A stretch of DNA of 64,000 nucleotides. Origin: a virus. The DNA lies in the IMG/VR virus record IMGVR_UViG_3300045988_122188. The stretch is one strand, 5' to 3'. Position 1 is the stretch's first letter; each line of letters begins with the position of its first letter. The notes under the pieces are model-generated. The model was not told where the DNA came from and did not search any database. It saw only the letters and a program-made list of their open reading frames with translations. A program made the position numbers and the translations under genes. Positions 33,117 to 36,818 of the stretch are shown one piece after another.

Positions 33117-33887
33117 TTAATCATCCAACTCCATTCCTGCCTCGATCCACATGCCAGATATAAATTTAGGCATTGGAGCAAGTTTAAATACATTCTTCTC
33201 ATGCATCTCGTCAATGATCTGTCTCACTGCTTCATCTTTACATACTCCAGTTCTCAGATATTCGTCTAACATATCATATGTAAATCCAAGATTATCTTCA
33301 TCTGTCTTACCGCATAATCCATCAGTAGGTGTTTTTTCGATTAACTCTGTTGGAAGTCCCAGAACTCTACCAATTGCTTTAACTTCTGTCACAGTCAGAT
33401 CACTTAATGGACTAAAATCTCCGGCTGAATCTCCATATCTTGTTGCATATCCGACCCAATCTTCAGATAAATTACATGTATTTGCTACTCTTCCATTCAT
33501 ACTCTGTGCAAAAGCATACAATGTAGCCATTCGGATACGAGCAGGTAAATTTGTGGCACTCTGTTTACTCCATTTACCGCCTAATTCATCTCTGATTTCA
33601 TGTTTAATATCTCTGCAAGCATTAAAAATATTAACTGTGTAATGTTCAATTCCTAGATGATCACATAGCATCTGAGAATACTCAATATCACTCTGCACAC
33701 CCTGTGGCATCATAATTCCAATAACTCGATCTTTACCTAGTGCTTCGACACATAAGGCAGCGACAACTGATGAATCTTTACCGCCTGAAATTCCTACAAC
33801 GGCATTACACCATCTTCCATTAACTTTAAACCAATCTCTAATCCACTGTACTAATCTGTCTTTGGTTTCTGCTGCATTAAAACTCAT
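33117..33887 (-). CDS. nadE: NH3-dependent NAD+ synthetase
   Basis: PP-loop motif VVGISGGKDSSVVAAL. 256 aa. Confidence 0.85.
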   Translation of the reverse strand: MSFNAAETKDRLVQWIRDWFKVNGRWCNAVVGISGGKDSSVVAALCVEALGKDRVIGIMMPQGVQSDIEYSQMLCDHLGIEHYTVNIFNACRDIKHEIRDELGGKWSKQSATNLPARIRMATLYAFAQSMNGRVANTCNLSEDWVGYATRYGDSAGDFSPLSDLTVTEVKAIGRVLGLPTELIEKTPTDGLCGKTDEDNLGFTYDMLDEYLRTGVCKDEAVRQIIDEMHEKNVFKLAPMPKFISGMWIEAGMELDD

Positions 33888-33904
33888 GTTTTATATCTCC
33901 TCTC

Positions 33905-35374
33905 TTAAAATTCTCCTTCGTTTAACACTCTTCTAATCTCCTGTAATGACTGTTCTTTGACCAATTTACCGTCTCTAAATACCGTCTCAAGCAAATTATT
34001 CATTGGAAGATTTTCTGAAGTATATTCATCTTTAAATGTCAGTTTGCCGTCTGATCCTTTATAGACATGACATAAACCTCTCTGAGATTTCTTAAATCCG
34101 CCATCTTTTGGATTCTTAAAAATCGGATATGGTCTGCCATCAATCTCACAATATGTTGCTTTGATGCAACTACTAAACGTATCTCTTGTAAATGGTTTCA
34201 AAACTCCATCTTCTTCGATACACTGAAATGAGAATGATCCAACGCCAAGTGCAACATTGCTTGCTGCGAATCCATTTTTCTCTAAGATGTCATAAATCTG
34301 CTCACATCTCTGCACTGTAATTGAATCTCCATAAATTGCTTTTACATGAGGATCTAATACTTTGTATCCTTTACTATTCGTAGTTCCGCCAAATTCTTCC
34401 CATAACTTGAATACTGTTCTGGTTACTACATCTACACAATCTCCTGAATCCCCTCTTACAAGAAAACATCCATTGTGATTCATGATCTCATTCTTGAGTT
34501 TTGGAAGAATATTCTCTACAACATTCCAATAATCATAAGAATCTAACACTGCGGAGAAGCTTGTATTTGGGTAAATCTCTGTTAGCAATCTTTTAATCAG
34601 TGTCTCTTCATCTCCGTCAATCGCATAATTACTACACATAACCGAATGCTCAGTAGACGGACTACCAAAAGCAACTGGCTCTTTCGTACAATCACAGTTA
34701 TAATTTCTCTCTAAATACGGAATTGTTGGAACTGTTGCTGTATTCAAGAATGATAAACACCATCCTGCCCCTGCTTTAACCGCAGACTGTAAACATTCTT
34801 CGCCACGAAAATCGAAAGCCCCTAATGCCTTAGATTTTGGGATATCATCATCGCAAGTCATTTCATAAAACTTATTAACGATCTGTCTATATGTATGCCC
34901 GACAGTCGCAGCTATCATCGGATGCCACATTTCTGCTGAAATTAAACTTTCTAATGCCTGTGGTAACCATGCAAAATCTTTGTGAGTATTCTCAATACTA
35001 AACATCGGCACATGCATTGGTACTAAAGTTCCTTCAGGAAGAGCCTTAATCTCAATTGGAAGATAGCCAAGATCATATAAATCTTCGATTTTCTGTAATC
35101 CATATGTACCTTCTCCAAGAGCTGCATCCATTACTGTCTTATAAGTACCAATTGCTTTGTTTCTATATTCAAAGAAAAAATACTCATTAAAATAATCGAC
35201 CAAATACTCTTTAATGAATCCTTGTAATCCAAACATGGCTACTTCATTCCATCGTTTTACTCTGCTCATACGTGGAGTAAAATAAGAAACAGATTTTGTA
35301 ATACCTTTTGGTAACATTTCAGCATGGACTGCTTTGTAAAAATCAATTAATAACATTGGATTTGTCTGTTTCAT
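33905..35374 (-). CDS. Nicotinamide phosphoribosyltransferase family protein (NAMPT/NadV, or the NARP1 Namat homolog)
   Basis: 489 aa. N-terminal LLIDFYKAVH matches the NAMPT DSYKxxH motif. Its start overlaps the stop of the upstream Prs-like gene by 4 nt. Confidence 0.8.
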   Translation of the reverse strand: MKQTNPMLLIDFYKAVHAEMLPKGITKSVSYFTPRMSRVKRWNEVAMFGLQGFIKEYLVDYFNEYFFFEYRNKAIGTYKTVMDAALGEGTYGLQKIEDLYDLGYLPIEIKALPEGTLVPMHVPMFSIENTHKDFAWLPQALESLISAEMWHPMIAATVGHTYRQIVNKFYEMTCDDDIPKSKALGAFDFRGEECLQSAVKAGAGWCLSFLNTATVPTIPYLERNYNCDCTKEPVAFGSPSTEHSVMCSNYAIDGDEETLIKRLLTEIYPNTSFSAVLDSYDYWNVVENILPKLKNEIMNHNGCFLVRGDSGDCVDVVTRTVFKLWEEFGGTTNSKGYKVLDPHVKAIYGDSITVQRCEQIYDILEKNGFAASNVALGVGSFSFQCIEEDGVLKPFTRDTFSSCIKATYCEIDGRPYPIFKNPKDGGFKKSQRGLCHVYKGSDGKLTFKDEYTSENLPMNNLLETVFRDGKLVKEQSLQEIRRVLNEGEF

Positions 35375-36207
35375 AAATCTAACACCTCAACCTTCTCATG
35401 CTCTTTTGTAAAAATACTACGTGTCGTATACACTTTTTTAAACAAACTATCTTCCTTTAATAATTCTCCATCAAGAATTGTATTTTCACAGTGACTAACA
35501 TATAAATACATATCTTTACAACCGTATTTGTTTAATTCTTTTGATCCGTAGTAGAATGTGCCACCCTTACTACAAATATCATCAATCATTAAAATTGCTG
35601 TATTCTCATCTAATTTATCTGTATCTCCATGAATCTCAATACCAAGAATTTTGCCTGTCTTCCAATCACGATTTTTAATTCCATAGACAATCGGATAATC
35701 ATCTGATACAAATTCAGAATATCTTTTTAGTGATCCGCTATCTGGGAAATAGATTACAAGATTTCTTGATGGTTCTGCTTTAAGGACTTTATTGCAAACC
35801 TTAGAAATATATAGTTTAATTGGTATATATTGTAGGTGATCAATCAATGCTTTAGAAACATCTGAGTGAGGATCTGCTACGATGACCTTTCTGAAATTTA
35901 ATTCATTGATGATTTCTGCAAAATATTTTAATGTAAAACATTCGTTATGATCTTTAACCCTGTCAAATCTTGCATTCGGAATATACGGCATCACTAAACA
36001 CTGTGATAAATGTGGGAAATATTCTCGAATACTTTTTGAAATACAATATAGCGAAAATAATTCTTTATCTGATTCATACAGCCATTCAATTGATACAAAT
36101 TTATTTACTGCAATCCGTGATCTCATTGCTCCTAACGGTAAATCAATTTTCTGTGTTCCATCTGGAAAAGATTCTGGAACAACTGGTACTCCACCAATAG
36201 TAATCAT
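35371..36207 (-). CDS. Ribose-phosphate pyrophosphokinase family protein (Prs, or an ADPR-PP synthetase Adps-like enzyme)
   Basis: VIVADPHSDVSKALIDHL and the PRPP-binding loop ILMIDDICSKGGTF. Translationally coupled to the NAMPT-like gene. Confidence 0.75.
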   Translation of the reverse strand: MITIGGVPVVPESFPDGTQKIDLPLGAMRSRIAVNKFVSIEWLYESDKELFSLYCISKSIREYFPHLSQCLVMPYIPNARFDRVKDHNECFTLKYFAEIINELNFRKVIVADPHSDVSKALIDHLQYIPIKLYISKVCNKVLKAEPSRNLVIYFPDSGSLKRYSEFVSDDYPIVYGIKNRDWKTGKILGIEIHGDTDKLDENTAILMIDDICSKGGTFYYGSKELNKYGCKDMYLYVSHCENTILDGELLKEDSLFKKVYTTRSIFTKEHEKVEVLDL

Positions 36208-36221
36208 CCTTCATCACTCCT

Positions 36222-36818
36222 TTACTCATTGATTACTTCAATCTGGCACATTTTCATAGCTTCAAGTGCGTTCTTGTGACTCTCTGGCGTTACACCTGCG
36301 CAACACGATGCATCTACAATAAGCTTTGCCTCTGGTAACGTTGTTTTTAACAACATTGCGTTGGAGATTACACAAATATCTGTACAAAGACCAATGAGTG
36401 TAATTTCAACATCTTCTGGGTGAGATCTATTACCTTCTCCAAACTCAGCTTCACAATCACATGCAAGATCTAATGACCCAAATGTTTCTTTACGATATGT
36501 GTCTAAAAGATATATTCCTTTTTCTTGCTTATGATATTCTGTAAACATTTCAGATGATAATAACTCCTTTGCAATTTTTTTATTGAATCGCCAACCATCT
36601 TCTCCTTTAATGCAATGTTTTACTGGAAGTTTCTTTCCTTCCTGTGTAGAAAAATAATCTTCGTGATGTGTATCTATTGTTGCTACAATAATGCCATCAA
36701 AATTTTTAATTTTCTCAATTACTTTGGGAACAATTTCCTGTGCTTCTTTGGTTCCAAGGCTTCCGTCGATGAAATCATTCTGCATATCGACGACAACCAA
36801 TAATTTATTAACGTCCAT
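36222..36818 (-). CDS. pncA: Nicotinamidase / isochorismatase-family hydrolase
   Basis: LLVVVDMQNDFIDGSLG and the catalytic-Cys region LIGLCTDICV. Confidence 0.75.
   Translation of the reverse strand: MDVNKLLVVVDMQNDFIDGSLGTKEAQEIVPKVIEKIKNFDGIIVATIDTHHEDYFSTQEGKKLPVKHCIKGEDGWRFNKKIAKELLSSEMFTEYHKQEKGIYLLDTYRKETFGSLDLACDCEAEFGEGNRSHPEDVEITLIGLCTDICVISNAMLLKTTLPEAKLIVDASCCAGVTPESHKNALEAMKMCQIEVINE

Follow-up and report, generated by a model that had tools for sequence, protein, structure and literature searches.

A gut-phage NAD+ cassette resembling NARP1, with a variant transferase predicted to use nicotinate

A four-gene cassette on the minus strand of the viral record IMGVR_UViG_3300045988_122188, at positions 33117-36818 of the 64,000-nucleotide stretch analysed here (the window), is best described as a variant of the phage NAD+ reconstitution system NARP1 with a predicted change of chemistry, and as a conserved and abundant module. 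Stripping the cell of NAD+ is one of the most common ways in which bacteria resist phages, and NARP1 is the chief phage countermeasure known. In NARP1, the synthetase Adps makes ADP-ribose pyrophosphate (ADPR-PP) from ADP-ribose (ADPR) and ATP, and the transferase Namat combines ADPR-PP with nicotinamide to give NAD+ (bioRxiv 10.1101/2024.02.11.579819). The cassette encodes a PncA-type nicotinamidase, an Adps, a Namat-family transferase with an altered base pocket and an NAD+ synthetase, NadE.

We consider it moderately probable that the operon rebuilds NAD+ from ADPR and nicotinamide, the products of defensive cleavage, through a deamidated version of NARP1. PncA would convert nicotinamide to nicotinate and NH3, and Adps would make ADPR-PP from ADPR and ATP as in NARP1. 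The variant transferase would then join nicotinate, and not nicotinamide, to ADPR-PP to form nicotinic acid adenine dinucleotide (NaAD, or deamido-NAD), which NadE would convert to NAD+ with ATP and NH3, the NH3 freed by PncA being a co-substrate of this last step. No adenylyltransferase for nicotinamide mononucleotide (NMN) or nicotinic acid mononucleotide (NaMN) would be necessary, in agreement with the finding of none. Of the pathways that employ the whole set of four enzymes and no others, this is the simplest. A role in countering host defence is suggested for the cassette because of its homology with NARP1.

The transferase pocket and its linkage to PncA and NadE

The transferase (33905..35374, minus strand, 489 aa; Pfam NAPRTase and NAMPT_N; PHROG 448, E=2e-158) scored 390 bits against the crystallised SPbetaL1 Namat (9w5x), compared with ~175 bits against the Xanthomonas and human Nampt. 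Its catalytic and ribose-phosphate contacts are kept (D11, Y13, F187, R190, H243, R307, D309, G349, D350, G379, S380, R397 and D398), and the Namat core residues H245, R306, D308, F189, R192, D13' and Y15' correspond to H243, R307, D309, F187, R190, D11 and Y13 of the window enzyme.

The nicotinamide pocket of Namat is formed in the crystal structure by F189, R192, D215, A242, R306, D13' and Y15', with D215 hydrogen-bonding the amide of nicotinamide (PMC12774641). The equivalent D219 of human NAMPT also binds the amide, and the corresponding residue of the human nicotinate phosphoribosyltransferase, S214, helps to steer specificity to nicotinate (PMC4442680). In alignment to 9w5x, the window transferase has N211-T212-A213 (codons 34736..34744, minus strand) in place of the canonical G-T-D (G213-T214-D215 in SPbetaL1, G217-T218-D219 in human NAMPT). 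A second switched pocket residue, S240 (codon 34655..34657, minus strand), aligns with A242 of SPbetaL1 and A244 of the human enzyme.

The same switch divides the family. Position 215 (SPbetaL1 numbering) is acidic in 188/188 non-redundant canonical sequences (180 D, 8 E), and is Ala in 39 and Ser in 14 of the 53 variant sequences; position 242 is Ala in all 188 canonical and Ser in all 53 variant sequences, and G213 is replaced by N or K in variant sequences. In the top 150 representatives of clusters formed at 50% identity from 1.8 billion proteins, the two positions co-vary as D/A (94), A/S (34) and S/S (18). All [A/S]/S sequences, that of the window included, are monophyletic and nested in the Namat clade of a neighbour-joining tree rooted on Nampt. 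Thirteen alignment positions separate the canonical from the variant class. Five of these are the human nicotinamide/FK866-pocket positions H191, G217, D219, S241 and A244 (PMC4919578), and two of the seven crystallographic pocket residues fall within the 13 (hypergeometric P=0.013). The loss of the acidic residue and the gain of Ser and Asn or Lys fit an anionic carboxylate ligand.

Loci were drawn from IMG/VR, GenBank phages, Logan/JGI contigs and GTDB genomes, partner genes were identified by hidden Markov model (HMM; E<=0.01), and linkage was counted among unique sequences flanked by 4 kb or more. Adps was found at 180/180 unique Namat-family loci of both classes. At the 108 canonical D/A loci, all with Adps, PncA was found at none, NadE at none and the two together at none; at the 72 variant [A/S]/S loci, again all with Adps, PncA was present at 71, NadE at 71 and both at 70. 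Pocket type predicts gene content almost perfectly, and this linkage is retained down to ~40% identity and across unrelated phage backbones. The order PncA-Adps-transferase-NadE occurs in 50/52 variant loci from GTDB and, because it recurs in ~150 independent contigs with Namat identity down to 48%, the four-gene arrangement is not a chance juxtaposition.

An earlier note on this DNA had left the roles of PncA and NadE open, as extras, and had called the cassette an unusually extended version of NARP1. Neither description holds, as the cassette is widespread in gut phages and the two genes are linked to the variant clade in 70/72 loci and to the canonical class in 0/108. On this linkage we infer that PncA and NadE belong to the route itself, which is a different, deamidated one. 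The note had also proposed that the coupled pair is NARP1-like and that its NAMPT-like member is a Namat. The pair is indeed of the Adps/Namat and not the NARP2 type, and the transferase is closer to Namat than to Nampt with its core intact; it is, however, probably not a standard nicotinamide-using Namat, as the amide-binding Asp is gone and the enzyme falls in a distinct clade.

It could be argued that the system is an ordinary nicotinamide-using NARP1, to which PncA and NadE are independent auxiliaries, serving either to raise Preiss-Handler salvage in the host or to reuse deamidated by-products. That the core pair is related to NARP1 is clear, and the Namat catalytic residues are all intact. 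In human NAMPT, D219S is listed as a substrate-affinity switch (PMC4919578), so that residual use of nicotinamide is possible in the Ser-type subclade. We nevertheless think this explanation improbable. It leaves unexplained both why all enzymes linked to PncA and NadE have Asp replaced when none of the 108 others does, and why five pocket or tunnel positions change jointly; D219A is listed as a loss of activity in the same source; a PncA from the same operon would destroy or compete for the Namat substrate; and PncA with NadE, in the absence of PncB and NadD, makes no pathway.

The donor substrate, the partner enzymes and competing routes

The Prs-like gene (35371..36207, minus strand, 278 aa; PHROG 619, E=3e-66) encodes an Adps, that is, an ADP-ribose pyrophosphate synthetase. 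It falls below every NCBIfam Prs cutoff (74 bits against 113). Against an HMM built from canonical NARP1 Adps only, it scored 251 bits, where the validated ICP1 Adps scored 263 bits and Prs fragments 103-149 bits. The ligand contacts of the ICP1 Adps are F18, R87, H121, D161, K185, D212, D213, the PP-loop and F221 (PMC13586617), and the window protein keeps F14, R80, H114, D156, K178, D209, D210, I211, C212 and F218, with the catalytic Lys (SPbetaL1 K162, ICP1 K185) aligning with K178. The profile comparison thus bears out the earlier preference for Adps over Prs. No class-specific change was found at the ligand residues between Adps from canonical and from variant loci, for which reason an altered substrate of the Prs-like enzyme was rejected as an explanation. 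The NARP1 genes of ICP1 itself are located at the end of its genome.

Recognition of the adenine moiety by Namat involves a clamp, and an R40/F392 double mutant selectively abolishes the use of ADPR-PP (PMC12774641). In the window transferase, the SCL stacking residue R38 and the aromatic at position 3 of the clamp-helix motif (F381) are kept, as is the TRD. The motif reads GS-X-Phi-X-Phi-X-Phi-TRD, with aromatics expected at positions 3 and 7, and in the window position 7 is Cys, followed by a nine-residue insertion, IEEDGVLKP (residues 386-394; 34193..34219, minus strand; GSFSFQC-[insert]-FTRD compared with the canonical GSFTYQYNTRD). Across the variant clade, R40 is R or K in 50/53 sequences and F392 is aromatic in 52/53. 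Early variant branches such as that of the gut phage Phass-1 keep the canonical 11-residue clamp motif, and later branches, including the window, carry clamp insertions of 6-17 residues. The insertion was considered as a tracker of PncA and NadE and rejected, as Phass-1 and the loci L291, L294 and L289 combine a canonical clamp motif with the switched pocket and both genes. Elsewhere in the family, the homologs P0159, P0193 and P0222 have an insertion of ~300 aa exactly within the clamp motif (GSF-C...SHN-TYQ...TRD), which is intein-like in having Cys at its start and His-Asn at its end before Thr, and in many other Namat homologs, 550-1100 aa long, insertions lie near residue 320.

The main rival to an ADPR-PP-based reaction is a phage salvage of the Preiss-Handler type that runs on phosphoribosyl pyrophosphate (PRPP). 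The Prs-like enzyme would supply PRPP, the transferase would form NaMN, the host NadD would turn this into deamido-NAD and the phage NadE would finish; a Nudix enzyme might provide the ribose-5-phosphate by cleaving ADPR. The pocket switch predicts the use of nicotinate equally well under this scheme, and canonical Namat is able to use PRPP in vitro (bioRxiv 10.1101/2024.02.11.579819; PMC12774641). The window transferase has lost the clamp residue Y396 and gained the clamp-helix insertion, and a Nudix-containing protein accompanies the cassette in 18/52 lineages. NadD is essential in bacteria and could hence be obtained from the host.

We nonetheless judge the PRPP scheme unlikely. The Prs-like protein matches validated Adps at all ligand contacts and scores unlike Prs, and the SPbetaL1 Adps gave no product from a ribose-phosphate substrate (bioRxiv 10.1101/2024.02.11.579819). 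The clamp residues R40 and F392 are conserved in the clade, and the full motif is present in its early branches. The cassette would provide four of five steps of such a salvage yet never NadD, and no adenylyltransferase family recurs nearby in the 52 lineages. The Nudix protein has an NrtR DNA-binding domain, as tested in locus L289, and most loci lack it, that of the window included. An ADPR-PP donor is thus favoured on account of the unaltered ligand residues of Adps, the conserved R40/F392 with the full motif of the early branches, and the Macro (Adpp-type) and HAD-like genes that variant loci share with canonical NARP1.

The two remaining enzymes are those that would carry the deamidation and the re-amidation. 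PncA, the first cassette gene (36222..36818, minus strand, 198 aa; Pfam Isochorismatase, E=9e-19), has the Pyrococcus nicotinamidase 1IM5 as its best relative in the PDB. Over 73 unique homologs from such cassettes, conservation is 95% or higher at the catalytic triad D11/K110/C145 and at the metal ligands D49/H51/H68. As it scores 30.7 against a cutoff of 174 for the NCBIfam PncA equivalog, it is a divergent member of the family. NadE, the final cassette enzyme (33117..33887, minus strand, 256 aa; Pfam NAD_synthase, E=3.5e-57), scores 190 bits against TIGR00552 (cutoff 63.65). It is an NH3-dependent, single-domain enzyme without a glutaminase domain, and its P-loop S34-G35-G36-x-D38-S39 does not vary among 76 unique homologs.

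The best PDB matches of NadE are NH3-dependent NAD synthetases, 2E18 (131 bits) followed by 3FIU (110 bits). The second of these, which we take to be a Francisella enzyme that prefers NaMN, would allow another order of events, in which the transferase makes NaMN, a Francisella-type NadE converts it to NMN and a host or other NMN adenylyltransferase completes NAD+. This appears very improbable, since the closest relative, 2E18, is an ordinary NH3-dependent NAD synthetase, no NMN adenylyltransferase (NMNAT) was found in the window or recurring near the cassette, and two assumptions more are needed than for the deamidated version of NARP1.

Several points weigh against the preferred reading, in which the transferase joins nicotinate to ADPR-PP. 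The specificity is predicted from two to five pocket residues, Ala is the commonest variant state at position 215, and human D219A has been reported as inactive only, not as nicotinate-using (PMC4919578). The lost Y396 and the clamp-helix insertion could mean that recognition of ADPR-PP by the window transferase is altered, and the NrtR-like Nudix protein of 18/52 lineages, if catalytically active, could feed a ribose-5-phosphate/PRPP route. Because the variant clade is monophyletic, the linkage is one origin retained and not a set of independent replicates, so that a Fisher P on the linkage counts overstates independence. There are also rare exceptions, namely L016 without NadE, L042 without PncA and L292 with a solitary transferase. 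What a deamidated detour would gain over direct NARP1 is a matter of speculation: the host may quickly deamidate or lose nicotinamide, so that canonical NARP1 would be starved, or the additional ATP-driven irreversible step may be of use.

A broader proposition, to which we give an even chance, is that the transferase reaction (nicotinate + ADPR-PP -> NaAD + PPi) is one never described and defines a fourth, deamidated phage pathway, widespread in phages of gut Clostridia and, in some bacteria, under ADP-ribose-responsive control of the NrtR type. If true, nicotinate ADP-ribose transferase would be a new enzyme activity and the four steps together a new route to NAD+; the presence of NadE and nicotinamidase in some phages would be accounted for, and the arms race would seem to have another level, one played out on the pyridine-base side. 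The proposition would also provide a two-position rule for annotating NARP1-like loci, Asp/Ala as opposed to Ala-or-Ser/Ser. At present, the genes are labelled as nicotinate/nicotinamide phosphoribosyltransferase and ribose-phosphate pyrophosphokinase, and anti-defence finders probably call such loci plain NARP1.

Locus layout, neighbouring genes and distribution

The earlier note was accurate on the layout. The four contiguous minus-strand ORFs match its coordinates exactly, the motifs DMQNDF, TDICV, DDICSKGGT, FYKAVH and SGGKDS are all found in the translations, and the four family assignments are upheld by Pfam, NCBIfam and PHROG profile searches. The 4-nt overlap of Adps and transferase is real (ATGA, 35371..35374, minus strand; read as ...TTA TGA / ATG AAA...). 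Given this overlap and the remaining spacers of 14, 17 and 2 nt, the genes are read as a single operon. The absence of an NMNAT or NadD-like gene was likewise confirmed for the window, where Pfam scans of the ORFs over the 64 kb found no NMNAT, Nudix, PnuC, CTP_transf_like or NadR domain; the window is part of a genome, and related viral contigs are ~140-170 kb. The NAD-dependent DNA ligase reported for the start of the window is LigA, truncated there (3..1226, minus strand; DNA_ligase_aden E=5e-48, DNA_ligase_OB E=7e-22 and Nlig-Ia by Pfam), and is a direct NAD+ consumer of the phage.

Two nucleotides after NadE lies an ORF of 110 aa (32782-33114, minus strand; PHROG 20678, function unassigned, no Pfam match), which is probably co-transcribed with NadE. 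Its product ends in CGGCI and is kept in close relatives only. The 74-nt spacer upstream of PncA (36819-36892) contains an imperfect inverted repeat, CCTGCCCGTCA-TATT-TGATGGGCGGG, on which the terminator scan made no call, followed by a strong Shine-Dalgarno sequence, GGAAGGAG. Scanned for promoters and terminators, the region 32600-37400 had no excess of sites over shuffled sequence and yielded no terminator.

Related loci carry additional genes around the cassette. A HAD-phosphatase-like protein of 136-139 aa, with a DxDxT motif and no Pfam match, lies between transferase and NadE in several relatives (L005 11470-11880, L028, L030, L211 9582-10001 and L290 2399-2818); it also adjoins Namat at canonical NARP1 loci (23/192, compared with 21/181 variant loci), and no description of it was found in the literature searched. 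A Macro-domain protein (Pfam 27.7 bits, cutoff 22) occupies the same position in L019 (11470-11982) and L073 (11440-11931). It resembles the Adpp phosphatase of NARP1-AP and occurs at 38/181 variant and 25/192 canonical loci; the window has no Macro-domain gene.

The Nudix-containing protein mentioned above is of ~277 aa with an intact-looking Nudix box, flanks the cassette in 18/52 non-redundant lineages (for example, L306 6229-7173 and L289 128-958) and is enriched at variant loci (66/181, compared with 10/192 canonical). The L289 example carries an NrtR winged-helix domain. NrtR regulators respond to ADP-ribose, and the protein could be an ADPR-responsive regulator or an active ADPR pyrophosphatase.

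The minus-strand interval 30507-32716, immediately downstream of the cassette, encodes an SPFH/flotillin-like protein of 486 aa (Band_7, E=8e-24), the gene of which is kept beside the cassette in several relatives, and a coiled-coil membrane protein of 244 aa. Elsewhere in the window are a sigma-70-like factor (15320-15856), a nucleoside 2-deoxyribosyltransferase-like protein (19787-20254) and an RlaP-family nucleotidyltransferase (21055-21975). The second half also holds a PemK/MazF toxin, a tyrosine integrase, two Bro-N proteins and a metallophosphoesterase. Given its integrase, the phage may be temperate or a phage-plasmid.

The exact transferase and relatives at least 95% identical to it occur in many gut metagenome assemblies, and one source names a 97% identical Anaerostipes record. 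There are 94 relatives in IMG/VR, their contigs reaching ~170 kb, and the best 80 relatives in GTDB are 71-80% identical and mostly binned with Lachnospiraceae and other Clostridia. Among GenBank phages, 2043 records have a Namat/Nampt homolog and only 50 have NadE, and the close matches are all uncultured human-gut sequences, which probably explains why the variant is unstudied. A megablast of the island against GenBank phages gave no match, relatives there being detected at the protein level only.

The cassette is also present in Phass-1 (L211, OQ749652), a recoded gut phage of genetic code 15, and the module therefore crosses very different phage lineages. In Phass-1 it adjoins a large tRNA array that includes the suppressor tRNA-Sup-CTA. 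The early-branching L291 and L294 have all four genes, L290 has a different order (transferase, HAD-like, NadE, Adps) and the order in L289 also differs. L289 resembles a bacterial chromosome, and its operon is headed by the protein with the NrtR DNA-binding domain. Relatives of the early-branching variants were sought among viruses with one alignment, which returned only canonical-class loci. In the near-identical sibling phages L001-L027, compared with window 33117-36818, the transferase is 98-100% identical, while PncA occurs as discrete alleles (64-65, 77-78, 82-83 and 100%), as does Adps (69-70, 81-86 and 98-100%). This pattern points to mosaic replacement with a breakpoint near the Adps/transferase junction.

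Comparison with known NAD+ systems

The systems described in the literature that could be searched are NARP1, NARP1-AP with its Macro-domain phosphatase, the RyDEP glycosidase, NARP2 and NARP3. No description of the variant cassette, or of NARP1 together with a nicotinamidase, was found in that literature, the coverage of which is incomplete. Neither NadE nor nicotinamidase is mentioned in a 2022 survey of viral NAD+ systems or in the original NARP1 paper (bioRxiv 10.1101/2024.02.11.579819).

NARP3 was considered as an earlier description of the cassette and rejected, as it consists of PnuC and NadR (PMC13464706). It is likewise a phage operon that restores NAD+, but its enzymes are unrelated (import, phosphorylation and adenylylation of nicotinamide riboside) and no gene is shared. 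NARP2, represented by the Nampt and Nmnat of Vibrio phage KVP40, has in common with the cassette a NAMPT-family enzyme and the aim of restoring NAD+. However, it relies on PRPP and an NMN adenylyltransferase and has no Adps, whereas the window has an Adps, a transferase that groups with Namat and no detected NMNAT.

Preiss-Handler salvage (PncA, PncB, NadD and NadE) shares its first and last enzymes with the cassette, together with the predicted passage from nicotinate through a deamido-dinucleotide to amidation. The steps of PncB and NadD are apparently replaced by Adps and the Namat-clade transferase acting on ADPR-PP; neither a PncB-type nicotinate phosphoribosyltransferase nor NadD was found in the window, and neither family recurs near the cassette in the 52 lineages.

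NARP1-AP, in which NARP1 is joined by the Macro-domain ADPR-1''-phosphatase Adpp (bioRxiv 10.64898/2026.01.28.702374), is similarly a NARP1 with added operon enzymes, and the relatives L019 and L073 have a Macro gene between transferase and NadE. Its extension lies on the ADPR side (dephosphorylation), whereas that of the cassette would lie on the pyridine-base side (deamidation and re-amidation).

The closest likeness is to NARP1 itself. Both have adjacent, translationally coupled genes for Adps and a Namat-clade enzyme in a phage, with the Adps ligand contacts and catalytic Lys, the Namat core and the main adenine-clamp residues conserved. Macro and HAD-like accessory genes are common to the related loci, and the cassette is presumed to share the role against NAD+-depleting defence. 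The cassette differs in that its transferase lacks Asp215 (Ala), has Ser at A242 and Asn at G213 and belongs to a separate monophyletic clade, and in the linkage of that clade, but not of canonical NARP1, to PncA and NadE. Where NARP1 yields NAD+ directly, the cassette is predicted to pass through a deamido-NAD intermediate.

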